Below, piece after piece: positions 2,997 through 22,772 of a stretch of 24,559 bases of DNA. Under the pieces are notes generated by a model, which saw only the letters and a list, made by a program, of their open reading frames with translations, was not told the DNA's origin and ran no database searches. The first letter of the stretch is position 1. Each line of letters starts with the position of its first letter. The DNA comes from a virus (Duplodnaviria > Caudoviricetes): positions 1-24,559 of the IMG/VR virus record IMGVR_UViG_3300025880_000109. One strand, given 5' to 3'. The translations under genes were made by a program, and so were the position numbers.

Positions 2997-3359
2997 ATGT
3001 TACAACATAAACATTTGATAGTTAGAGCAGAAGTAAGTAACCCTCCAAGGTACGAGCAAACAATTATCGATTGGTCAACTAATCTAATCCGCGACATTGG
3101 TATGAAAATAATGATGGGACCGTTTGCAAAGTACTGTGAAATGAAGGGTAACCGAGGACTAACTTGTGTTACTATTATTGAAACTAGTCATGTTGCAATA
3201 CATGTATGGGACGAAGGTGCCCCTTGTTTAGTACAACTTGATGTATATACTTGTGGTGATTTAAATAAGCAAATAATTTTTGATGCTTTAGAAAAGTTTG
3301 ATCCAGTCAAAATTGATTACAAATATCTTGACAGAGAAAAAGAGTTTATAGAACTTTAG
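2997..3359 (+). CDS. Pyruvoyl-dependent decarboxylase, S-adenosylmethionine decarboxylase (SpeD/SpeH) family
   Basis: KHLIV start, GLTCVTIIETSHVAIHVWDE and QLDVYTCG motifs. Substrate uncertain, so no symbol given. Confidence 0.85.
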   Translation: MLQHKHLIVRAEVSNPPRYEQTIIDWSTNLIRDIGMKIMMGPFAKYCEMKGNRGLTCVTIIETSHVAIHVWDEGAPCLVQLDVYTCGDLNKQIIFDALEKFDPVKIDYKYLDREKEFIEL

Positions 3360-11036: not shown

Positions 11037-11714
11037 GCCGTGTTTCTCATAATATGCATAAACCCTATTCCACCATTCTTGTTCCCATTCTTTAAATTCA
11101 TGTGGCCATAGGTCAAATTGTTGGTATTCACCTGCTCTGCTACACATAAAGATGTGTCCTTCACAGATATTAGTATCATATATTTCGTTGTGTGCGATAG
11201 CATATGCTGTTAATTGTAAAAAATAATCTTGTACCCACTCTAATTTCTTAGGCTTATTAGTTTGTTTAAAGTCCATAATACAAGGTTGCCCTTTGTATTG
11301 TCCTACAAGGTCAGTAGTTCCTGCATACATTTGTGGAACATACAAAGCAACTTCACTGCCCCATATTTCATCTACATCTGATAGTGCTTGTTCTTTTACT
11401 TGTGTTGCCATCATGTGTGCTTGTTTAGCATAAGGATTACTGCCTGGTTCAGCCCACGTGCCAAACTCAACATAATCTTCTAAGTATTTGTGCATACGTG
11501 TTCCAACACCTGCGGCTTCTGTTACAATTTCTTGTGCTTTAGTTTCGCCTACACGTTTACGCCAAGCAATAAGATGTGTCTTGTCTTTTGTGGCGTCTAA
11601 GATTGTAGTAACGCTTGCTACAGCGTGGCCATCAGGGGTCAAGTACTTACGCTTACCATCTACGCTTTTTCGTTGAATTGTTTGATAATCAAATTTATTT
11701 GTTATTAGAGTCAT
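11034..11714 (-). CDS. PD-(D/E)XK exonuclease (phage/MGME1-like)
   Basis: SVTTIL, GTRMH, SEVAL, YAGTTD, MDFKQT and QLTAYA motifs. Start revised to MTLITNK (ATG 11714). Confidence 0.88.
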   Translation of the reverse strand: MTLITNKFDYQTIQRKSVDGKRKYLTPDGHAVASVTTILDATKDKTHLIAWRKRVGETKAQEIVTEAAGVGTRMHKYLEDYVEFGTWAEPGSNPYAKQAHMMATQVKEQALSDVDEIWGSEVALYVPQMYAGTTDLVGQYKGQPCIMDFKQTNKPKKLEWVQDYFLQLTAYAIAHNEIYDTNICEGHIFMCSRAGEYQQFDLWPHEFKEWEQEWWNRVYAYYEKHG

Positions 11715-12030
11715 CGACTTCGTCCCAATCATGTTGCATAGCAAATGGATCGCTATAAAAAGGATCCACTGTACTGAAAGGATCATCTTGTGCATCTACT
11801 TCAGTTACTTCTGGAACGTAATGTTTAATCATATTTTCGACACCAAGTTTAAGCGTCATAGTACTGCCTGAACATCCTGAACAGGCTCCGCCTAGTTCAA
11901 GTAATAGTCTACCGTCTTTATATTCTAGAAATTCAATGTTGCCGCCATGACTTGCAACGCCAGGCTTAACATGCGATTCAATTAACTCTTTAATTTGTTT
12001 GATGATTTCCTCATCAGTTCTTGTTGTCAT
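11695..12030 (-). CDS. NifU-C/Nfu-type Fe-S cluster carrier (single Nfu domain)
   Basis: VKPGVASHGGNIEF...LGGACSGC..STMTLKLGVENMIKHYVPEVTEV. AGGAG RBS. Confidence 0.92.
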   Translation of the reverse strand: MTTRTDEEIIKQIKELIESHVKPGVASHGGNIEFLEYKDGRLLLELGGACSGCSGSTMTLKLGVENMIKHYVPEVTEVDAQDDPFSTVDPFYSDPFAMQHDWDEVDDSNNK

Positions 12031-12054
12031 AAAGTATGCTCCTAATTTAAGTTA

Positions 12055-12083
12055 ATTATACTAGAAGTATTGTCTATTGTCAA
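12055..12083 (-). promoter_or_regulatory. Perfect-consensus sigma70 promoter for Nfu-exonuclease
   Basis: TTGACA (12083-12078), N17, TATAAT (12060-12055). Confidence 0.9.
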
Positions 12084-12367
12084 CCTAAATTTGTGGCTCT
12101 TTTTGCCATTGAGGAAACTGTTTGATCTGAACTTGGTTCTTTAGCGTCTTGTGGAATGTCATCCATTTCACTGCTTTTAAATGTTAATTTGTTCTTATCA
12201 AAGTTTTTGACCATTGCTTTTACTATAGGGTCAGTATTGTATGCTTGTAGGAAAACATCATAACTGAATTGTGACTTACCAACATTTTGCATTAGTTGGT
12301 CCAATTGATCAAATGTAAATGTTTTTTGGTCTTTGTTACTGAGGACGGTTAAGACCTTTTTCAACAC
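12080..12367 (-). CDS. Hypothetical domain, probably the -1 frameshift extension of 12388-13296
   Basis: GTG start lacks a spaced RBS and lies in a hairpin. The frame is open back through the slippery site. Confidence 0.7.
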   Translation of the reverse strand: MLKKVLTVLSNKDQKTFTFDQLDQLMQNVGKSQFSYDVFLQAYNTDPIVKAMVKNFDKNKLTFKSSEMDDIPQDAKEPSSDQTVSSMAKRATNLG

Positions 12368-12400
12368 TTCCGTGTCGACGTTCTCAGTTACGACTTTTTT
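12338..12400 (-). other. Programmed -1 ribosomal frameshift signal (putative)
   Basis: In-frame A_AAA_AAG (12400-12394), 5-nt spacer, stem ACUGAG-A-AC/GU-C-CUCAGU enclosing the UCGACAC-GGAA-GUGUUGA hairpin. Confidence 0.8.
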
Positions 12401-13296
12401 CCGGCTAGTATCGAACCAATCTTGCGTGAACGTTCTATGCTCTCACGTGTTTCGCGTCCTGCTTCTGCTTCGCCACCTGCGGCCGCCGCGTCTGCACCAA
12501 ATTCATCTTCTGCTTCACCTGTTTCTGGATCTACTGCTGGCTCTTCTGCATCTACTGTTGGTTCCATTGCTGGCTCTTCTGCTGGATCTTCAGCACCCAT
12601 TGTATCCACAGGCTCACCTTCGCCTGTTACAATGCCTACACCATTTGTTAGTGCTTCACGTGTTGATTCCATTGCAGTGTACATTGCTTCTAATGCTGGC
12701 TTTACCGCATTAGTAAATGCTTCTGATTTCTCTGCACCTAGTTCGTCTCTGATAGCATCTGCAAGTTCTAACATTGACTCTGTTTGCATTTCTGCTGTGT
12801 CTTCCATCCAACCTGTAACTCTGTCTACCATGTCTTTAGAAGCCATAACTAATTCTGCGTTATCTTCTGCACCTTCTTTGATTACTGATTCTTTCATTTC
12901 TTTCATGCAATCGTCAATCATATCTTTTAATTTACCTTGATCGCAATCTGGGTGCATTTTACAAATTTCTGCTTTAGTCTTACCATCTTTACACATTTTC
13001 GTAATGTGTGCTTTTGAAGGCATTTTATCTTCTGCTTCAACAACTGGTGGTGTTTCTTTAATTGCTTGATTAAGAACGTCTAAAAATAATTTTGACTTTT
13101 GATAACTTTCGCTCTTAACTGCATCAAAACTTTCGTTTGTTTCAATGTCTTTCAACATAGTACGCACTTTGTTACGTGCATCTTCTAGTTGTGGTAATGT
13201 AAATTTGGCAATATCAATTTTAGTGCCATAACGCTTTGCAAGACTCTCATTGAGTGTTGCCGCTGTAATTGGTGTTTTAATTTCTCTAATGTTCAT
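12388..13296 (-). CDS. Acidic helical protein, putative prohead core/internal head protein
   Basis: MNIREI leader, several L/I/V-x-E sites, Glu/Ala/Pro-rich tail, TAAATA upstream. Confidence 0.6.
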   Translation of the reverse strand: MNIREIKTPITAATLNESLAKRYGTKIDIAKFTLPQLEDARNKVRTMLKDIETNESFDAVKSESYQKSKLFLDVLNQAIKETPPVVEAEDKMPSKAHITKMCKDGKTKAEICKMHPDCDQGKLKDMIDDCMKEMKESVIKEGAEDNAELVMASKDMVDRVTGWMEDTAEMQTESMLELADAIRDELGAEKSEAFTNAVKPALEAMYTAMESTREALTNGVGIVTGEGEPVDTMGAEDPAEEPAMEPTVDAEEPAVDPETGEAEDEFGADAAAAGGEAEAGRETRESIERSRKIGSILAGKKS

Positions 13297-13326
13297 TGTT
13301 CATATCCTTGCAGAATTTGTTATAGT

Positions 13327-13332
13327 TATTTA
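13327..13332 (-). promoter_or_regulatory. TAAATA late-like promoter
   Basis: GATAAATAAC in the 41-nt gap before the 13296 start. Confidence 0.6.
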
Positions 13333-13337
13333 TCATT

Positions 13338-13754
13338 CTAATTGTATATATAGTCCTCAAGTCGAGTTCTACCTTTATCGATCTTGGTTGTAGCAATATC
13401 TAGCCTGCATTCTAGCACTTCTTTACGCAATTCATCGTCTGATTGCTTATAACTGTGCTGGAAAAATACTGCATCATTGTAGTTTTTTTCTATCTCGTAA
13501 TCAATTTTCAGTACTTCATTAACTACATTATGTCCTTCAGCATGTTTTTTAGCAATAGCAACTGCGGCTGTTTTACTAAATGTATGTGCAACTTGCTTTT
13601 GATGCTTCATATCAAACACATAGTTACCTTTTTTGCTTGTGCGAACTATCATATTACCTATGCGGACGCTGTTACCTTTCACATACGGAAAGGCTACATC
13701 TTCTAGACCTTGCTCGATCAAGGCTTTTAGTTCATTTACTAAGGCTTTCGTCAT
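13338..13754 (-). CDS. Hypothetical protein
   Basis: Start revised to MTKALV (ATG 13754, GGTGG upstream). Confidence 0.7.
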   Translation of the reverse strand: MTKALVNELKALIEQGLEDVAFPYVKGNSVRIGNMIVRTSKKGNYVFDMKHQKQVAHTFSKTAAVAIAKKHAEGHNVVNEVLKIDYEIEKNYNDAVFFQHSYKQSDDELRKEVLECRLDIATTKIDKGRTRLEDYIYN

Positions 13755-13947
13755 TTGCAACCACCATGATATTACCATTGTTATGTACTTTACTTACTAA
13801 ACTCTTACGTATTAGACCTTCAAGAACGAATTGTTCTCTTTCGTCAAAACTTTCATATGGCATAACACCTTTTACATTACGAAGTAAATCTGCTTCTTCG
13901 TTGCTCATTGCTATAGTAAATTGTGTTATTAACTCGTTTAGTTTCAT
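13732..13947 (-). CDS. Small hypothetical protein with MKLNEL leader, possibly wHTH-like
   Basis: Starts 1 nt after the upstream stop. EGLIRKSLVSKV helix-wing pattern. Confidence 0.7.
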   Translation of the reverse strand: MKLNELITQFTIAMSNEEADLLRNVKGVMPYESFDEREQFVLEGLIRKSLVSKVHNNGNIMVVANDESLSK

Positions 13948-13948
13948 T

Positions 13949-15067
13949 TTATTTCATACTCTGTAGTTGCTTTTTTAGCATATCTAATTCGGCTTTCTTA
14001 GCCTTAATTTGCTTTTGTGCAACGTCTTTCTGCATTTTCTGCATCTTGCGTTGCTGTGCTTGTGCTTTTGGATCAGTTGGGTCTGCGCCTGGTTGATCTG
14101 CGGCCGCTTGTGCTTGCTTTGGTCCAGGTCCAGGTACTATACCTGTTGCTGGTGTTGCCATTTGGGTGCCTGTTGCTCCCTGTGGTTTATTTGGTACATC
14201 AAATACTTCTGGGTCTGACTTTTTATATCCTGTACTTCCAGGTCCACCTCGTCCTGCTAGTGCCGCTAGTCCTGCTAGTCCTAATGCTCCTACTCCTAGT
14301 CCTCCTAGTCCTATGCCTTTACCTATTCCTCCAGATTTTTTAGGAAGTGTTCCTGTACCTGTTCTTGACTTAACACCCGGTGCTTGCTTTGGCTTAGGTG
14401 CTTGTTTAGGATTGGTACGTGCTTGTGGTTTAGGTGCTTGTTGTGGTTTAGGTACAGTACTACCTGGTTTAGGTTGTGCTACTCTTGGTGGTGGTTGTGT
14501 TCCTGGTCTAGGTGCTGTTGTACTTGCCGGTGGCTTAGGTGCCGCTGTACTAGGTGCAGGTGTTGTTGGTTGTTTAGGAGCCGCTGTTGCTCCTGGATTT
14601 GTAACTTGTGGATTACTTACTCTTGGCTTTGGTGGCTGAGTTCTTATCTTAGGTGCAGTACCTGGCTTTGGAGTTGCCAATGCTGGTGGTTGCATTGTAC
14701 TAGGTGGTGCTGTTGTACTTGCCGGTGGCTTAGGACTTGCTATGCTAGAAGGCGGTGCTGGTTGTCCTGGCGCACTAGTTTGTGGTGCCGTAACTGCTGG
14801 GTTTTGTGTCTTACCTGTTCTAGGTTGATTTCTACCTTTGCTTGTAGCCTTACCATCACGCTTAAATGCATCTTTACCTTTTTTAATTAAATTTTGTATA
14901 ACAGGTTTGCCACGCTTAATAAGTTCTTGCCCACCTTTTTTAATAATTGGTCCTGCCGCGCTTGCCGCTCCTCTTGCTAGTGCCGGTATTAGGGCAAGCG
15001 GATTTTCATTAATGATTAGATCAAGACGTTCGCCTTTGTCGTTTTTGTTAAACTCGTCAAATCTCAT
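13949..15067 (-). CDS. Pro/Ala/Thr/Lys-rich low-complexity protein with Gly-zipper hydrophobic segment and C-terminal coiled coil
   Basis: MRFDEF leader, TAATG coupling, GIGKGIGLGGLGVGALGLAGLAALAG segment. Confidence 0.75.
   Translation of the reverse strand: MRFDEFNKNDKGERLDLIINENPLALIPALARGAASAAGPIIKKGGQELIKRGKPVIQNLIKKGKDAFKRDGKATSKGRNQPRTGKTQNPAVTAPQTSAPGQPAPPSSIASPKPPASTTAPPSTMQPPALATPKPGTAPKIRTQPPKPRVSNPQVTNPGATAAPKQPTTPAPSTAAPKPPASTTAPRPGTQPPPRVAQPKPGSTVPKPQQAPKPQARTNPKQAPKPKQAPGVKSRTGTGTLPKKSGGIGKGIGLGGLGVGALGLAGLAALAGRGGPGSTGYKKSDPEVFDVPNKPQGATGTQMATPATGIVPGPGPKQAQAAADQPGADPTDPKAQAQQRKMQKMQKDVAQKQIKAKKAELDMLKKQLQSMK
14511..14734. repeat. Exact 29-nt direct repeat (14511-14539 and 14706-14734) encoding PKPPASTTAP
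   Basis: ggtgctgttgtacttgccggtggcttagg twice, 195 nt (65 codons) apart. Confidence 0.9.
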
Positions 15068-15393
15068 TAACTAGTCCTTCTCTTGCCTGCAAATCTTTTC
15101 TTAGGTCTAACGTTAATACGCTTCAAACGTTTACTTGCTGGATTGGCTCTTTTAGTTTTCTTTGTATTAATTTTAATTTTGTTTGGAGTTTTGCGTTTAG
15201 TTTTAGTAAGTTGAATCTTTGCTTTTTGATTTAAAGGTTTATTACATGTTGCGGCTCTTGCAACAATACGTCCTTTACGTATTCCACTTGTGCAACGATA
15301 CTTACGTACTTGTTTACCACCTGAACGACTCCATATAGTTCTAACTGCTTCAACTACTGGGTCTTCTGTTATGTAAAATTCACGTAACAACAT
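15067..15393 (-). CDS. Highly basic protein, paralog B
   Basis: VRKYRC..G.R.GRIVA....C.KP.N and TKR.NPAS shared with the neighbouring gene. Confidence 0.75.
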   Translation of the reverse strand: MLLREFYITEDPVVEAVRTIWSRSGGKQVRKYRCTSGIRKGRIVARAATCNKPLNQKAKIQLTKTKRKTPNKIKINTKKTKRANPASKRLKRINVRPKKRFAGKRRTS

Positions 15394-15696
15394 CTAACGT
15401 CTCGCTTTATTCATTGCCTTAAGTCTTCTACTTGCGGGATTAATACGTTTAGTTCTTCTTGATTTTCTAGCAATACGTTTACCTAGTCTAGCCTGTGTAC
15501 GCTTTAAGGTATAACGTGCTTTCATATTAATAGGTTTAAAACATGCGCTAGGTGCGGCAACAATACGTCCGTGGCGAGTACCACCGGAACACCTATACTT
15601 ACGTACGACCTTGTTGCCTCTGCGTCCCCAGATCTGTTTTTCATCTAGTTCAAATTGCTCGCCCGCGGGGTCAGTAATGAGTTCTCTTAAGTTCAT
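15394..15696 (-). CDS. Highly basic protein, paralog A (possible T4 gp68-like core protein)
   Basis: 38/75 identical residues to paralog B in an ungapped manual alignment. Confidence 0.75.
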   Translation of the reverse strand: MNLRELITDPAGEQFELDEKQIWGRRGNKVVRKYRCSGGTRHGRIVAAPSACFKPINMKARYTLKRTQARLGKRIARKSRRTKRINPASRRLKAMNKARR

Positions 15697-15700
15697 ACTG

Positions 15701-15706
15701 TATTTA
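15701..15706 (-). promoter_or_regulatory. TAAATA late-like promoter 4 nt before ATG
   Basis: CATAAATACAGT-ATG. No room for an RBS. Confidence 0.55.
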
Positions 15707-15709
15707 TGT

Positions 15710-15940
15710 TTAGGAAAGGTTAAGTAAAATAACTACGATTGTAGATAACAAGCCAGCAACTACTGTGCCTGCCGCACCAATGATTACTTTAGTCATTGAT
15801 TGCTGTCCTCTAGTAATGTCATCGTGAATATGATGCACTTTTGCTTCAATTTTATCTAAGCGAGTTTCAAGATTTTTATATCTTTGTTCGCATAAATCTA
15901 CATGTGCTTCTAGGTTTTCACGTTCTAAGGCAGTTGCCAT
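15710..15940 (-). CDS. Coiled-coil plus single C-terminal TM protein (holin/XhlA-like architecture)
   Basis: HVDLCEQRY..LETRLDKIE coiled coil, VIIGAAGTVVAGLLSTIVVILL TM, GGAG RBS. Confidence 0.65.
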   Translation of the reverse strand: MATALERENLEAHVDLCEQRYKNLETRLDKIEAKVHHIHDDITRGQQSMTKVIIGAAGTVVAGLLSTIVVILLNLS

Positions 15941-16009
15941 TGTTTATTCTCCATTAGTAAACTTCGTAAGTTAGCCTAATATGCCTTGAATGGTGTTTTA
16001 GTGTTTGCC

Positions 16010-16420
16010 TTATATAGAGTATTTATCATCTTCGGCCAATATCTTAAACAAGATATTGCACTTTTTGGCATCTGATGTACAGAATAATGCATCTTCCATG
16101 ATGCAATTTTCTTTTAAGTTTTTAACCACAGGAACCATATCAAAATCAGTTTCCATCATTTCAACACTGTGTGATTCATCTTGCTCTACAGTAATAATGC
16201 AACGCCATACGTTTAAATTTTTGTTAGCGTAGTCACTTCCAAAGCCTATTGCTTTTTGTTTCTTAAACACAGGGTCTGAAATTTCTACGTTGGTTCTAAG
16301 TCCAAGTGTTTGTACAACACTCATATAGTTTTGTTGCTGTCCGTATGCTAGTTTGTCTTCGCCACGACGTGCATTTGTTTTTGTGATATCTACTAACGTA
16401 GTTAATTCAAATGTGTTCAT
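16010..16420 (-). CDS. Hypothetical protein
   Basis: Clean ORF after a terminator. TAAGTA element at 16431-16426, 5 nt before the ATG. Confidence 0.7.
   Translation of the reverse strand: MNTFELTTLVDITKTNARRGEDKLAYGQQQNYMSVVQTLGLRTNVEISDPVFKKQKAIGFGSDYANKNLNVWRCIITVEQDESHSVEMMETDFDMVPVVKNLKENCIMEDALFCTSDAKKCNILFKILAEDDKYSI
16020..16025 (-). promoter_or_regulatory. TAAATA late-like promoter for the holin-like gene
   Basis: GATAAATAC at the 3' end of the upstream ORF. Confidence 0.5.
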
Positions 16421-16439
16421 GTTAGTACTTATCGGTCAC

Positions 16440-16470
16440 AAAAAAAGGCCCAGTAAAAACTGAGCCTTTT
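16440..16470 (-). terminator. Rho-independent terminator
   Basis: Minus strand AAAAGGCTCAG-TTTTTA-CTGGGCCTTTT followed by TTT. Confidence 0.85.
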
Positions 16471-16501
16471 AATGTTAAAGTTATTAAACTTATAACAACT
16501 A

Positions 16502-16834
16502 TTAAGTTGCTACAAATCCGTCTAAGTCACGTGCTGTTACTGTTGCACTTGAAAGATCAACACCGTCTACTGTACCCATGTTCTGTAAGCGAACTTGCAT
16601 TGAAGCCGCTGATTGTCCATGTCCGTGTACGATTGCAAAAATCTTACCTGCTGTACCTGTTGACTTGTACATTACTGGTGAAAACTCACCAACGATTTGA
16701 GCCAATGCTCCGTCAACGCCGTCTTTTGCGGCTAATGATACGATTGCATCGATTTCTACACCGATTAGATCTGCTGTGTTGTATTGAACGCCATGATCAC
16801 GTCCGTCTTGATTTACTCTTGCTACTGATGCCAT
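16502..16834 (-). CDS. Small abundant virion structural protein (decoration-like, putative)
   Basis: Own TAAATA promoter, 5' hairpin, AGGAG RBS and own terminator. Ala/Gly/Val/Thr-rich. Confidence 0.6.
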   Translation of the reverse strand: MASVARVNQDGRDHGVQYNTADLIGVEIDAIVSLAAKDGVDGALAQIVGEFSPVMYKSTGTAGKIFAIVHGHGQSAASMQVRLQNMGTVDGVDLSSATVTARDLDGFVAT

Positions 16835-16894
16835 TTTATATCTCCTATATTTTCTCTAATGACCAATTTCGTTTCTCTACGAAGTTGTTATATG

Positions 16895-16900
16895 TATTTA
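16895..16900 (-). promoter_or_regulatory. TAAATA late-like promoter
   Basis: GGTAAATAC in the intergenic gap. A second TAAATA lies at 16927-16922. Confidence 0.6.
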
Positions 16901-16920
16901 CCAAAGAGGAGAAAAAACGC

Positions 16921-17793
16921 CTATTTACGGCTCTTTTTTGCTCTCTGATGCAGTGCTCTTAGGAGATTTATGTATGCAGGTCCTGCTTTTACGATGTCAT
17001 CTAGCATTTTAACCGCCGGAATGTAGCCTTGTACGAACTGTCCAGGTATACTTCTGCCTTGTTTTGCTAGTGCTAGGAAGTTTTTAGTACGCATAACGTT
17101 TTCTGTACCTACTACATAGCGATATAAACTAATATCACGTGCATCTGTGCTGATATCTGGTACACTTACTGTAGGTTCATTGTCTGCTACTCTTGCTGTT
17201 TCTAGATCATTTGTTGCGGCTAATTTACTAAGGTCATCAACTAAATCACTTGTACGTAGTTTTGCTCTTGCGGCAATTAATAATCTTGTGATAGTGTTTT
17301 CTTTGTCTTTAGTACTTAGGCTTCTATATCTTGTAAGATTTCTTCGTACAATTTTATAGTCGGCATTGCTAATATTCAACCCACCTTCAAGTTTGATAAG
17401 GAATTGTGAAGTTTGAGTATACTGATGACTACTTGCAATACTTTTTAACCATCCATTAAGTTGCATCAACGGCAAGTTAGTTCTTTGCCTCATTGCTTTT
17501 GCGGCACTAGGATCTTTTAGTTTGTTCATAGCATCTTCGTCGCCATTTACAAAGTAAGCAAGATTATATAAATCTGTGCCACTCATCCTATACGCTTTAA
17601 ACGTATCGTAGCCTGTAGTTCTTTTAGCATACTCACTTGCTGTACGTCTAAAATAAGCATATTGATTTAGTGCTTCTAATATCAATACACTTAGATACAA
17701 TCGTTCACAACAATCTGTATACGTCAGACTCTTGAGCGTACCTGTACTACGAGTCATTCGTGCCTCGTGCATGTCCTTAATGAATTCCATCAT
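16921..17793 (-). CDS. Hypothetical helical protein, putative internal virion protein
   Basis: 290-aa ORF with short leader MMEFIKDMHE-AR. Confidence 0.7.
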   Translation of the reverse strand: MMEFIKDMHEARMTRSTGTLKSLTYTDCCERLYLSVLILEALNQYAYFRRTASEYAKRTTGYDTFKAYRMSGTDLYNLAYFVNGDEDAMNKLKDPSAAKAMRQRTNLPLMQLNGWLKSIASSHQYTQTSQFLIKLEGGLNISNADYKIVRRNLTRYRSLSTKDKENTITRLLIAARAKLRTSDLVDDLSKLAATNDLETARVADNEPTVSVPDISTDARDISLYRYVVGTENVMRTKNFLALAKQGRSIPGQFVQGYIPAVKMLDDIVKAGPAYINLLRALHQRAKKSRK

Positions 17794-17799
17794 TTGTTT

Positions 17800-18129
17800 T
17801 TATTCTTCTTCTGGTTGCTCTGGCTCAGGATCTTTAACACCTGCACCTGGTTTTACGTCTGCGTTTTTAACTTTAGCAATAATTGCTTTTGCCATTTCAA
17901 CATCTACGTTTGCATCTTTTAATGCTTCACCTGGTGTCTTAGGACCAAATGCTGAACCTAGTTTACCAAATGACGATCCTAATGCCGCCGCTTTGTTGAA
18001 CTCAACATCTTCCCATTCAAGGCCACTTCCTGGCTCTAATGCTGAAGCAATCTTTTGCCCCATTCTTACATACGGCATAAGTTTTGGATCTACATCGTAT
18101 GGTCCTTCTAATAAATCTGTAATTTTCAT
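17800..18129 (-). CDS. Hypothetical protein with MKITDLLE leader
   Basis: AAGGA RBS, acidic Pro-rich tail. Confidence 0.75.
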   Translation of the reverse strand: MKITDLLEGPYDVDPKLMPYVRMGQKIASALEPGSGLEWEDVEFNKAAALGSSFGKLGSAFGPKTPGEALKDANVDVEMAKAIIAKVKNADVKPGAGVKDPEPEQPEEE

Positions 18130-18139
18130 TTTGTTTTCC

Positions 18140-19381
18140 TTATCTTTCTACTGCTCTATTTGCGGCAGAGAATGTTTTGCGTGGTACTAATTTAATATCG
18201 CCCTTAGGATGTGCTAATACATATCCTTCACCACCTGGCTGGTCACCTATTGATTGTTTGACATCTCCACCTTGACTGTCAAACTTAGCAATAATATCGT
18301 CTTTGGCTTGCATAATAGCAGTAACAACATTCCACATTGCTTTGAAATGTCCCATATGCTCTTTTATATATGCAAGTACATTAACTTTCTTCTTTTCACT
18401 AACCTTTGCTGTTTGTAACCATTTAGCAAAGTCTCCGCCTAAGTTATCTAAACCTGTATCAACTTTACTGTTGATGTAGGCATAAAACAATTTAGGCAAA
18501 TCTGTCATTTGTTTTGCTCTAAGACTAGGCTCATCAAGCATTGCATCTAGTCCTTGTGCATTTTGTTTTACTACTGCTGTTGCTCTATCTAATATTGTTG
18601 TGTCTACTTCTACTGGTGCTACTGTTGTTACACTTGGAACTACAAACACATCATTGCCTTGGAATATATCTTTATTTGTAAAAGGACCTTCAGCACCTTC
18701 TGAATCTACTTCTCTATGTATTACAATACCTGTTGTGCTTTTGCCAATACGTTTGCCTAAGTCACTCTTAACATCAATATTATATGTTACAGTTTGAGGT
18801 TTAAATGTGTAGTGTCCGTCTTTTACTTCTGGTGTGTTATAATACAACAAGTCGCCTTTGAAGTATCCTCTGTAATCTTTTGGAACTGCTTTTTCATACA
18901 AACTAAAAATTGTTGCCATCTTATCTGCGAATGCTATACGGCCCGGATCATCTCTGAGTTTGCCACCTGAACGACCGAGCAACTCTTGCTTAATCGCATC
19001 TGGACTTTTGGTTCTTCCAACTCCGCCTTTTTTGCCGAAGCCTGATTTGTCTGTAAATATAAACTCTCCATTTTCATCGCGGCCAAAAATGAGCGCGGGA
19101 GATCCATCCCATTTAAGTGTGACATTCTTGTGATCCTCCTTAGCCATATTGCGTAATGCTTCTAATGCTCGCATTGCGCCTTTGCTACCTTCCCAAAATA
19201 CAATATCTTCTGCATGTTGTATACGTGCATCTGCTTCATACAGACTTTCGCCTACAAGTTTACCTCTAGCAGGATGTGGAGTTTCGTTGCCGCCGGGTTT
19301 GCTTTTCTTCTTAATGGCATCTTTGCCTTTAAGTTGTCCTGCCTTACCTTTTTTATATTCTTTAAATTCTACGTAACGCAT
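18140..19381 (-). CDS. ATP-dependent ligase-like nucleotidyltransferase (KxDG; DUF6267-like, RNA-ligase-like)
   Basis: Motif I TLKWDGS (K90), FKGDLL, GEGYV and IKLV.R in ligase order. No OB domain apparent. Confidence 0.7.
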   Translation of the reverse strand: MRYVEFKEYKKGKAGQLKGKDAIKKKSKPGGNETPHPARGKLVGESLYEADARIQHAEDIVFWEGSKGAMRALEALRNMAKEDHKNVTLKWDGSPALIFGRDENGEFIFTDKSGFGKKGGVGRTKSPDAIKQELLGRSGGKLRDDPGRIAFADKMATIFSLYEKAVPKDYRGYFKGDLLYYNTPEVKDGHYTFKPQTVTYNIDVKSDLGKRIGKSTTGIVIHREVDSEGAEGPFTNKDIFQGNDVFVVPSVTTVAPVEVDTTILDRATAVVKQNAQGLDAMLDEPSLRAKQMTDLPKLFYAYINSKVDTGLDNLGGDFAKWLQTAKVSEKKKVNVLAYIKEHMGHFKAMWNVVTAIMQAKDDIIAKFDSQGGDVKQSIGDQPGGEGYVLAHPKGDIKLVPRKTFSAANRAVER

Positions 19382-20555
19382 TTATAATCTCGTTTTCTTG
19401 TGTTTGTATTTTCTTTTTCATCCACGCACTATTTGGATCTGCTTCGTACTTGTCTACAATTTCTTTTGCACTTGGCATCTTTGCTAAAATACTTTCTACT
19501 GAACCTAAGTCACTTGCTGTTGCATTAGGGCCTATTAATTGTTTTGCAATATTTTCTAAGTCGTTACTTACAAGTTCGTTTGTATCTCTATTAACTAAAC
19601 CTTTGTAAGGGCTCCACTTGAATCCTTTTTCTTTTGCAAGGTCTGCAATCATAATTTGTTTGTGTACACCTTTGTATGGTGAACCTTTAGGTATATCATG
19701 TACATGAAACTTACTTGCTGTCTCGCCGTTGTCAACAACCATAATGTCAACTTGCTGTGGAGTATCACCTATAGTTGTTTTTACATGGACAATTTGTCCT
19801 GTCTTTTTAGTTTCAAACCCTGCTTGTTGAAACATCTTTTCTAATTCTATTTTTGCAGTTTTAACATCAGGTGCTTTTAAATTTTTGATTAGTTGTCCTG
19901 CATCTGCAATCATGTCTAAGTCACCACTCATCTTACCTGGTGTAGGAGTTGCACCTGATCCAATTGGTAATGCTTTAACACCTGCTTTGGTCATTACACC
20001 ATTAATCTGTTTCATCATATCTGGTATAAGTTTTTGATCAAAGTCTGCTGTTCCTGGAAAAATGTTTCCGCCTTCTTTTAGAATATGTCCTTTAACATTA
20101 ATACTTTCATTTGCATCTTTCATTTTAGGATCTTTGATGCTGTTATATAATTTTACGCCACGCTTAACATCTAAAGGTTTTAATGATCTGCCATCTTCAG
20201 TATTACCATTCCATTGTTTCTCTACTGGATCCCAACTGTATATTTCTTTTCTTGGAGTTTTAAATACTGCTACCGTTGGCATATTACTTGGATCTAATAC
20301 TTCTATTTTTCTATTAGCAACAGGCTTTGTTACAACTCGTGTACTTTTTTTAGTAACTGTTTTTTTATCATCTACTTTTTTCTCATCTGGTCCGCGACCA
20401 CCTACTGCACCTTGCATAGTTTGAATTGCTTTCATAGGAAAACTACCACGTACAGCATCATCAGCCTTTTTAACCCAACTATCGTTTGGATTTGATTTAG
20501 TTTTTGATGCTTTAGATTTCTTAGGTGCTTCGTTTAGTAGATCAGTTATCTTCAT
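19362..20555 (-). CDS. Pol-beta-superfamily nucleotidyltransferase with long basic N-terminal extension
   Basis: IGS (G199-S200), GDLD (D212, D214) and QVDIM (D270). Confidence 0.75.
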   Translation of the reverse strand: MKITDLLNEAPKKSKASKTKSNPNDSWVKKADDAVRGSFPMKAIQTMQGAVGGRGPDEKKVDDKKTVTKKSTRVVTKPVANRKIEVLDPSNMPTVAVFKTPRKEIYSWDPVEKQWNGNTEDGRSLKPLDVKRGVKLYNSIKDPKMKDANESINVKGHILKEGGNIFPGTADFDQKLIPDMMKQINGVMTKAGVKALPIGSGATPTPGKMSGDLDMIADAGQLIKNLKAPDVKTAKIELEKMFQQAGFETKKTGQIVHVKTTIGDTPQQVDIMVVDNGETASKFHVHDIPKGSPYKGVHKQIMIADLAKEKGFKWSPYKGLVNRDTNELVSNDLENIAKQLIGPNATASDLGSVESILAKMPSAKEIVDKYEADPNSAWMKKKIQTQENEIINALRRI

Positions 20556-20805
20556 TTTTAGATTCCATTACTTTTGACATTACTCTCTTAAATTTACGTG
20601 GATCCCCAGTTCTAATAGAATTTAAGAACCTGCGTTCTAATTCGTTAGCAGTAGCATCATCATAAGTTTCAGCAATTCTATTTAAAAGATTAATCGCACT
20701 TTCGATAATATTATTGCCTGTGGCTTCAATTAAGTGGTCGTTATGCTTCTGTGAACGCCCAACTGTATTCAATTCTTGCAATATGCTTCTAGTACGTTTT
20801 TTCAT
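20542..20805 (-). CDS. Hypothetical helical protein, first gene of the late block
   Basis: GGAG RBS, TAAATA upstream. Confidence 0.75.
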   Translation of the reverse strand: MKKRTRSILQELNTVGRSQKHNDHLIEATGNNIIESAINLLNRIAETYDDATANELERRFLNSIRTGDPRKFKRVMSKVMESKNEDN

Positions 20806-20822
20806 TAGTTACTCCGTTACAG

Positions 20823-20843
20823 TATTTAGCGTTAGAATAAATA
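20823..20843. promoter_or_regulatory. Back-to-back divergent TAAATA elements
   Basis: Minus-strand TAAATA at 20828-20823 and plus-strand TAAATA at 20838-20843. Confidence 0.6.
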
Positions 20844-20869
20844 TAGATGTAAACTTAGGAGATGGGCAT

Positions 20870-21628
20870 ATGTCAATAAACGAATTGAATTTCAAAGAAC
20901 GATCCCTATTATTTGCTAAACTTTCAAGTATTGCTTATAGTAACATAAAAGAAGCAAAAGGTCAAGTAAAGAAATTAGGGTTTACAACTGTGGAATTCTA
21001 CAATAAAGATGGGGCGCAAGCATATCGTTTTATGAATAAGACTGATATTGTAATTGCATGTCGTGGAACACAACCGACAGAATTTAATGATTTAAAAGCA
21101 GATTTAAAAGCAACACCAGTAATGGCTGAAACTGTTAGTAGGGTACACAGAGGATTTAAGCAAGAAGTAGATGATCTTTGGCCTGATGTGCAAGAAGATT
21201 TACTTCGAAAAGTTAATTTAAATAAAACACTTTGGTTCTGTGGACATAGTTTAGGTGCGGCAATGGCTACTATTATGGCAAGTCGTTGTATGTATGAAGA
21301 AGAACTAAATGACCCTATTGAACTTTATACTTACGGCTCACCGCGTGTGGGTTGGAGGGGTTACTGCAATAGTTTAAACGTAACACATCATCGCTGGAAG
21401 AACAACAACGATATTGTTACAACTGTTCCTCTTGCAATAATGGGTTATGTGCATCACGGCAATCAGCATTACTTAAATGCTTATGGCAAATATAGAAAAC
21501 CTACAGGCTGGCAGATGTTTAAAGATAGACTTCGCGGCATGTGGATGGGAATTAAAAAAGGTAAGATAGACAACTTTGGTGATCACTCTATGGCAGAGTA
21601 TATCAAACACATTTCTAACTTAGACTAA
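20870..21628 (+). CDS. Class 3 lipase (alpha/beta hydrolase)
   Basis: IACRGT, VHRGF, GHSLGAA nucleophile elbow, YTYGSPRVG, NNNDIV..VP and DHSM..Y. Start revised to ATG 20870 (AGGAG RBS). Confidence 0.93.
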   Translation: MSINELNFKERSLLFAKLSSIAYSNIKEAKGQVKKLGFTTVEFYNKDGAQAYRFMNKTDIVIACRGTQPTEFNDLKADLKATPVMAETVSRVHRGFKQEVDDLWPDVQEDLLRKVNLNKTLWFCGHSLGAAMATIMASRCMYEEELNDPIELYTYGSPRVGWRGYCNSLNVTHHRWKNNNDIVTTVPLAIMGYVHHGNQHYLNAYGKYRKPTGWQMFKDRLRGMWMGIKKGKIDNFGDHSMAEYIKHISNLD

Positions 21629-21813
21629 GACTCACTAACTTTTTTGTTGTAAGCCTCTTCAAAGCCTTCCATGCCATATTCTGCTCTTTCATTATTCCCC
21701 CAAAGTCTTTTGAAATAGCCATCATATGAACTAATAATAGTTTCTTTGGTTGTGTTAAGATGGCCTTTTGTCAACCAGAACAGCCGGCATGCTTCTTTGA
21801 AGTCAGGTTCCAT
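21625..21813 (-). CDS. Hypothetical protein
   Basis: TAATG coupling to prs. Confidence 0.65.
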   Translation of the reverse strand: MEPDFKEACRLFWLTKGHLNTTKETIISSYDGYFKRLWGNNERAEYGMEGFEEAYNKKVSES

Positions 21814-22772
21814 TAGACAAACAAAGAACTAACTGATTCTTCATTTGTAACTCTACGCATTGCTTCTCCAAATAATTGACTCACACTCACTTGTCTTGTT
21901 TTCTTACAGTTCTTAGGACAACGGTTAGCAATTGAATCGGTTACTACCAATTCATCTAGTACACTTTTTTCAACCTTTTGGCATGCTTCGCCTGACAGTA
22001 CGCCGTGTGTAATATATGCTCTAACACTCAATGCCCCTGCGTCCATAATTGCTTTAGCCGCATTACATAATGTACCACCCGAGTCAATAATATCATCAAC
22101 TAGAACAGCATGTTTACCTTTAACATCTCCGATCAAATTCATTACTTCACTCTTGCCTGCTTCAGGACGCATCTTGTCTACAATAGCAATGTCACCGTTG
22201 AACATATCAGCAAACTTCCTAGCACGAACAACACCGCCTGCATCTGGTGATACAAAAACTGTGCCTTGTTGATTAACCTCTGGGTCATCAACATAACCAA
22301 TACTACGTTTGATGTCTTTGGCAAACACCACACGGCTTGTTAAATCGTCAACTGGAATATCAAAGAAGCCTTGTATCTGTCCTGCGTGTAAATCCATAGT
22401 TAAGATTCTATCTGCTCCTGCTGTTACTAACAAGTTAGCAACTAGTTTTGCTGTAATAGGAGTACGACTTGCACTTTTACGATCTTGTCTTGCATAACCA
22501 AAATAAGGAATAACTGCTGTAATACGACTTGCACTCGAACGTCTTGCCGCATCAATCATAATTAACATTTCCATTAGATTATCATTTACTGGACTACTTG
22601 TACTCTGTACTATAAACACATCTTCACCGCGGATGTTTTCCATAAACTCTACACTAGACTCGCCGTCAGCAAAAGTTGATACTGTTGCTGGGACTAGAGT
22701 TGCAAAACAATGTTCTGCAATCTCTTGTGCTAATTGAGGATTAGCATTTCCTGTAATGATTTTCATTTTCAA
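21813..22772 (-). CDS. prs: Ribose-phosphate pyrophosphokinase
   Basis: FADGE, YFGYARQDRK, DLHAGQIQGFFD, VSPDAGGVVRA and VDDIIDSGGT motifs. Confidence 0.97.
   Translation of the reverse strand: MKMKIITGNANPQLAQEIAEHCFATLVPATVSTFADGESSVEFMENIRGEDVFIVQSTSSPVNDNLMEMLIMIDAARRSSASRITAVIPYFGYARQDRKSASRTPITAKLVANLLVTAGADRILTMDLHAGQIQGFFDIPVDDLTSRVVFAKDIKRSIGYVDDPEVNQQGTVFVSPDAGGVVRARKFADMFNGDIAIVDKMRPEAGKSEVMNLIGDVKGKHAVLVDDIIDSGGTLCNAAKAIMDAGALSVRAYITHGVLSGEACQKVEKSVLDELVVTDSIANRCPKNCKKTRQVSVSQLFGEAMRRVTNEESVSSLFV

Follow-up and report, generated by a model that had tools for sequence, protein, structure and literature searches.

A predicted programmed frameshift at the end of a likely head-interior protein gene in an uncultured marine giant phage and its relatives

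An SD-like 5' stimulator situated 9-15 nt upstream is an optional feature of -1 frameshift sites of the dnaX/IS3 type, and Shigella mxiE is a case of transcriptional slippage with a 9-base homopolymer. In the available text of PMC5009743, the sites of E. coli dnaX and of the IS3 family, including IS911, carry an in-frame A_AAA_AAG heptamer with AAG in the A site and an RNA structure a few bases 3' of it, and the dnaX shift shortens the product. The same text describes slippage at a 9-base homopolymer in Thermus thermophilus dnaX and Shigella spa13, as well as coat-protein frameshifts in T7/T3 gene 10, Lactobacillus phage A2, and Listeria phages A118, A500, and PSA, by which a C-terminal domain is added to some molecules of a virion protein. 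In lambda G/GT, a late gene ends in a -1 shift that sets a product ratio, and both gpG and gpGT are absent from virions (PMC5009743 and PMC10885494, each available in part). Nearly all annotated phage frameshifts in the data set of PMC10885494, as far as its text was available, belong to tail chaperones. In phage T4, gp21 cleaves L/I-X-E, and short leaders that are later cleaved bring the internal proteins into the head (PMC9026906, available in part); recoding in T4 core genes was not found in that portion of the source.

The window analyzed here is the whole stretch of 24,559 nt from an uncultured marine giant phage, and all its recoding features are located on the minus strand. The locus adds a new case to a known mode of recoding, dnaX/IS3-like and T7/T3/A2-like in its working; no report of the site was found in the open-access literature, subscription papers being outside the scope of the search. 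With dnaX, the IS3 family, and IS911 it shares the in-frame heptamer, AAG in the A site, and a predicted RNA structure a few bases downstream. It differs from them in being a phage virion gene, in having no SD-like 5' stimulator, and in an IS911-type third arm that is unsupported, and from dnaX in that the shift would extend the product. The 9-base homopolymer of Thermus dnaX and spa13 occurs in most relatives of the site, whereas the window has A6 only, with a stem; the gene family appears to use either type of signal. As in the coat-protein cases, a C-terminal domain would be added to some molecules of a virion protein, but the first gene (ORF1) encodes neither a major capsid nor a tail protein, and the extension (ORF2) is winged-helix-like rather than Ig-like, opens on a likely protease site, and stands as a gene of its own in sister lineages. 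In contrast to lambda G/GT, NifU-like and exonuclease genes follow ORF2, with no tape-measure or major tail gene and no match to a chaperone family, and the cultured homologues of ORF1 are annotated as virion proteins. The original prediction had placed the recoding outside the tail-chaperone context and in a head-core or internal protein; the data agree with the former and with a gene of virion/head type, the head-core location and the fixed product ratio being presumptive. With this site, phage recoding takes in a likely head-interior protein in addition to tail chaperones and coat proteins.

Recoding site and predicted stem

The features of the locus in window coordinates are the following.

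12388..13296, minus strand: ORF1, 302 aa, predicted to be all-helical, with an acidic linker and the leader MNIREI
12394..12400, minus strand: slippery heptamer A_AAA_AAG, the A run of six at 12400-12395
12388..12390, minus strand: TAA stop of ORF1, one codon past the heptamer
12338..12388, minus strand: predicted 3' stimulator with the outer helix P1, ACUGAG (12388-12383) paired with CUCAGU (12343-12338), plus AC/GU
12361..12378, minus strand: inner hairpin P2, 7 bp with a GGAA loop, GTG 12367 in its 3' arm
12347..12356, minus strand: marginal third arm P3 (GGU-CUUA-ACC), pair probability 0.52-0.60, broken in 3 of 9 variants
12080..12397, minus strand: transframe ORF2, 105 codons counted from the A-site lysine

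ORF1 ends in GGA AAA AAG TCG TAA, and the A_AAA_AAG first noticed one codon before its stop was confirmed at 12400-12394. An open -1 frame spans 12442 to 12080 and, as had been read before, runs K-V-V-T-E-N-V-D-T-E from the A-site lysine into ORF2, which comprises the V-T-E motif, a winged-helix-like domain (approximately residues 10-75), a flexible linker, and a conserved V-x-x-M-A-K-x-A tail. The product of a tandem -1 slip is predicted to have 300 + 105 = 405 aa. The first canonical start of the -1 frame is GTG 12367, a codon in the 3' arm of P2 that lacks a spaced SD and reads GTA in two loci (L007 and L008). The downstream ORF had been described as having neither an ATG nor a spaced RBS; the latter holds for this GTG, but internal ATGs do occur further on. 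Gene callers annotate 95-aa and 70-aa forms, the 70-aa one from an internal ATG, and recognition of the site corrects the annotation of an abundant marine jumbo-phage family (4288 ORF1 relatives among 8000 candidates scored), for which annotations of the downstream domain routinely begin at an incorrect internal codon. Inspection of the sequence 9-15 nt upstream of the heptamer revealed no SD-like stimulator. In-frame A_AAA_AAG was found three times in the 6184 codons of the 27 window genes, each time within ten codons of the stop, and only the ORF1 heptamer opens a long -1 frame. In the genes at 16921-17793 and 13949-15067 (minus strand), it lies among the last ten codons, and the -1 frame shuts after 3 and 9 codons, respectively.

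The predicted 3' stimulator starts 5 nt past the heptamer. Pair probabilities were 0.96-1.0 for ACUGAG/CUCAGU (P1), 0.91-1.0 for the 7-bp GGAA hairpin (P2), and 0.52-0.60 for GGU/ACC; the third arm is missing from the MFE fold and present in the centroid, each at -17.5 kcal/mol. Against dinucleotide shuffles, the stem z-scores ranged from -2.3 to -3.1 over 62-72 nt and were -1.4 and -1.8 over 97 and 131 nt. Against synonymous-codon shuffles, the stem of the window had z = -4.5, the window clade gave -3.0 to -6.6 in all six junctions, and its five nearest A8-A10 sisters gave -2.4 to +0.5. Among the nine distinct variants of the window clade, the 6-bp helix of P1 is unvaried (9/9) and so provides no covariation evidence, and P2 displays one double change from C-G to U-A, one change from G-U to A-U, and one break, with the GNRA loop in 8/9. 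The covariation is thin, since the double change is probably a single event and 20 of 500 shuffles score as high. Synonymous variation was lower over the stem (9/20 versus 41/53 codons, p 0.012), the p value being 0.12 (9/16) once the four sequence-selecting codons were left out.

Within the window clade, P1 and P2 are well supported, and two helices describe the predicted stem better than a three-way junction does. Of the branched, three-helix stimulator in the original prediction, the named pairings exist, and P1 and P2 are strong; its third arm is marginal, and the comparison with the IS911 three-way junction failed on this arm (p about 0.55, broken in 3/9 variants). A conserved three-way junction was accordingly rejected, as was a family-wide stimulator: z was below -2 in 31 of 107 junctions in the first 60-nt window past the site and in 38 and 32 in the next two, with family means of -1.3, -1.5, and -1.2, and site-less loci reached -2.8 in the second. 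An Rfam search returned nothing near the gathering score. The covariation expected among homologs was seen in the P2 double change only, the stem being absent family-wide. As the strong stem is confined to the window clade, it is a trait of that clade.

Conservation of the junction and routes to the fusion

Homologous junctions were collected in two sets. The first set contained 290 loci, of which one lacked the anchor and 42 had too little flank, and the remainder yielded 116 distinct junctions; the second set added 79 loci (42 duplicates, one short, and 36 new), giving 152 distinct junctions in total, which share ancestry and whose counts do not represent independent events. The heptamer and frame offset are kept in most of them: 141/152 junctions carry A_AAA_AAN in frame and ORF2 in -1 (117 AAG, 19 AAA, and 5 AAC). 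The remaining junctions comprised nine without a site and two with an A11 run and ORF2 in +1; no in-frame fusions were found. The A run of the 141 junctions consisted of six (7 junctions), eight (8), nine (111), or ten (15) bases. The G closing the run was kept in 95 of the first 107 junctions whatever the -1 codon (V 66, G 13, A 7, E 5, and D 4), with AAG making up 31% (606/1955) of the ORF1 lysine codons, and just seven A runs of at least 8 were counted in 69,503 gene-body codons of 333 genes. The heptamer is hence conserved at the nucleotide level beyond protein need, and it is gone where an ATG appears.

No ATG, GTG, or TTG precedes the motif Glu in 131 of the 141 site-bearing junctions. 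The other ten have such a start (seven GTG codons overlapping a TGA stop and three ATG codons) and may use both routes. Homologs without the heptamer amounted to the nine site-less junctions only, and each carries its own ATG, 2-15 nt past the stop, followed by a leader M-(K/R)-hydrophobic-x-(D/E) (9/9; e.g., MRVSDIILEE and MKISDIINE), so that site and start swap. On the ORF1 tree (FastTree, 154 rows, last 12 residues removed, two short rows excluded), the shifting/own-start label required six changes, and among the shifting lineages the own-start forms (with L057) made up four nests, two neighbouring each other. These nests suggest three to four separate regains of an own start, if the long-branch outgroup roots the tree correctly.

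Several junctions deviate from the common arrangement. L211, L237, L308, L322, L373, L320, L360, and L057 combine a slip site with a start codon close to the stop, some with a full leader; these loci are possible intermediates between the fused and free forms. Tandem slip sites within about 10 codons at the ORF1 end, both leading into the same -1 frame, were found in L048, L123, L190, and L240. In L349, about 105 extra residues separate the slip site from the ORF2 domain, and a second hydrophobic-x-E motif comes after them.

The frame break might be thought to reflect an assembly error, DNA-level phase variation of the A run, or a decaying fusion gene, given that A runs are generally error-prone and that one in-frame ORF1-ORF2 fusion protein (P0277) is known. 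This protein agrees with a recoded fusion product as well; it comes from a single contig and could be a homopolymer error; the viral collection contained no loci close to it (best about 50% identity). In-frame fusions numbered 0 of the 152 junctions, the A run of the window is A6 only, and ORF2 is conserved as a protein (612 representatives, E <= 0.001), all of which speak against such origins. A different A-run length was sought in contigs from four other sequencing runs (four studies), which had no indel at the site; two of the four bridge it, and one bridging contig is identical across 11712-12808. Since contigs lose rare variants, this comparison excludes an assembly error and leaves room for minor heterogeneity. 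These origins of the frame break are largely refuted and highly improbable. The conservation in 141/152 junctions, the start swap at the site-less ones, and the indel-free bridging assemblies make recoding very likely real, and the ORF1-ORF2 fusion is, with high confidence from these comparisons, made by recoding. Termination-coupled reinitiation, or a start at GTG 12367 or an internal ATG, with ORF2 as a separate gene and the lysine codons incidental, would agree with the 95-aa and 70-aa forms annotated by gene callers, with the free-standing gene of the cultured relatives, and with the 10/141 junctions where a GTG or ATG overlaps the ORF1 stop or lies close to it, in some cases followed by a full leader. 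This reading is nonetheless improbable: such a start is missing in 131/141 junctions; GTG 12367 is buried in the hairpin without a spaced SD and is GTA in the two loci named above; the lysine run disappears wherever an ATG appears (9/9); and the first ATG comes only after conserved transframe residues and the first predicted helix.

RNA-polymerase slippage, a route absent from the original prediction, would add an A to the transcript and bring ORF2 into frame. It is a plausible source of the fusion in the A9-A11 relatives; in the window, it is unlikely to be the main one. Slippage is efficient at 9 As or Ts (PMC5009743, available in part), and a run of about 9 A or T, as in the Thermus dnaX type, is present in 126/141 relatives (111 A9 and 15 A10), no stem is conserved family-wide, and the cultured relative PA5oct is transcribed by the host RNA polymerase (PMC7318152, available in part). 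In L367, L368, and L369 (two strains), an A11 run at the ORF1 end is combined with ORF2 in +1, so that the same fusion requires the opposite indel, i.e., the loss of one A, or a -2/+1 shift; this pair of junctions fits slippage, though a run of this length may also permit a ribosomal slip of -2 or +1. Polymerase slippage probably contributes to the fusion in A9-A11 relatives. The window clade, by contrast, has A6 only, below the 9-base run cited for efficient slippage in the available text of PMC5009743, and eight further junctions have A8; the codon phase at the run end is the same, with AAG in 95 of the first 107 junctions, neither of which slippage needs; and the strong stem arises in the short-run clade. 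This clade is nested among A8-A10 sisters on the ORF1 tree, and its association of A6 with a stem is a single evolutionary event.

With A6 only and a stem, a ribosomal shift is favoured in the window clade. A ribosomal -1 shift on A_AAA_AAG, aided by the predicted two-helix stem and giving 302-aa and 405-aa products, is the probable route there, and of the programmed -1 frameshift originally proposed, the sequence comparison bore out a conserved -1 recoding site (141/152 junctions, with an own ATG in 9/9 of the site-less ones). A fraction of ribosomes would slip back one base at the end of ORF1, presumably by tandem tRNA-Lys slippage as in E. coli dnaX, and the stem 5 nt downstream would stimulate the slip, so that one gene would give the 302-aa protein plus its 405-aa extended form. 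Six RNA runs contained 0.20-0.26 of the sampled words, a fraction on which no expression claim rests. The natural series of A6 with a stem, A8, A9, A10, A11, and a free gene allows a comparison of ribosomal and polymerase slippage.

The two proteins and a possible role in head loading

The neighbouring genes of the window match jumbo phages such as Pseudomonas phage PA5oct, Pectobacterium phage CBB, Atu_ph07, and Phosso, and by these matches the window phage is a distant relative of the PA5oct/CBB jumbo phages. Direct tblastn of ORF1 and ORF2 against the cultured phage records gave no match, and the relatives were reached by neighbouring genes and profiles. ORF1 was assigned to PHROG 14154, a virion structural protein (E 6e-13), and its profile matched a syntenic gene in four of five records (PA5oct, CBB, Atu_ph07, and Phosso; E 2e-16 to 7e-10, 866 ORFs) and none in the fifth, a small unrelated phage. 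The homologue is annotated as a virion structural protein in PA5oct, with an ESI-MS/MS note, and in CBB. The portal, protease/scaffold, and major head genes of PA5oct have descriptions of their own (PMC7318152, available in part). A search for gp23 in five long related records gave no match and is uninformative, as the controls were likewise unmatched. ORF1 was modelled as all-helical, a long stretch of it being acidic and disordered, and the fold search found only uncharacterised phage proteins at E <= 0.01. ORF1 is a likely head-interior (core-type) virion protein.

Pfam contained no family for ORF1 or ORF2, and PHROG none for ORF2. The ORF2 model (pLDDT 73) has a winged-helix-like topology; it drew many winged-helix matches, the best VIA Z being 6.0 and none reaching 8, and Foldseek against PDB gave no match at E <= 0.001. 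As the fold matches are weak, ORF2 is winged-helix-like in topology only. In all four cultured records, the gene following the ORF1 homologue is free-standing, with its own start and a leader M-(K/R)-hydrophobic...E. Homology of ORF2 to these genes was detected only with CBB gp299 (E 5e-5); for the downstream genes of PA5oct, Atu_ph07, and Phosso none was detected, and the correspondence is positional. An hhalign comparison of ORF2 with PA5oct gp246 (probability 0.1%) and CBB gp299 (4%) was not convincing. Three matches to longer proteins with the ORF2 domain were obtained, with the domain N-terminal in each and none fused to ORF1. In P0030, P0031, P0160, and P0166, the ORF2 domain is N-terminal in longer proteins (261-771 aa) with their own leader.

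A hydrophobic-x-E motif occurs within the first 14 transframe residues in 140/141 junctions, compared with 82/912 background windows, and a small residue usually follows it. The V-x-E of the transframe stretch is not the strict L/I-X-E of T4, and the motif could be a vestige of an old leader. As for T4 core and internal proteins (PMC9026906, available in part), many genes of the block and the free ORF2 forms have short hydrophobic-x-E leaders, and ORF1 is likewise helical and acidic with several hydrophobic-x-E sites; in PHROG, Pfam, and viral fold searches, T4 gp22, gp67, gp68, and the IPs appeared in neither the sequence nor the fold matches. In the simplest reading of these motifs, the fusion would replace the leader of ORF2 for head entry, with predicted release inside. 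The V-T-E just past the shift would be a prohead-protease site, the winged-helix-like domain would enter the prohead attached to ORF1 at a sub-stoichiometric ratio set by the shift rate, and the prohead protease would free it there. More tentatively, a Gag-Pol-like mode of head loading is possible, in which a winged-helix-like DNA-binding domain would be tethered to a core protein at a fixed ratio in place of its leader and freed by the protease, and lineages would flip among three encodings, namely a free gene with a leader, polymerase slippage on A9-A11, and a ribosomal shift on A6 with a stem; the window would then represent a switch from transcriptional to translational recoding. Such an arrangement points to a way in which a phage may control how many copies of a protein it packages.

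At least eight late-block genes at 13296-20555 (minus strand) start with M-(K/R/N/L)-hydrophobic-x-(E/D)-hydrophobic, resembling a capsid-targeting leader. Host-like genes are located at 11695-12030, 20714-21628, 21813-22772, 2997-3359, and 1720-2535, with Pfam matches to a NifU-like domain and a class 3 lipase; by eye, we take others among them to be PRPP-synthetase-like, SAM-decarboxylase-like, and porin-like ORFs.
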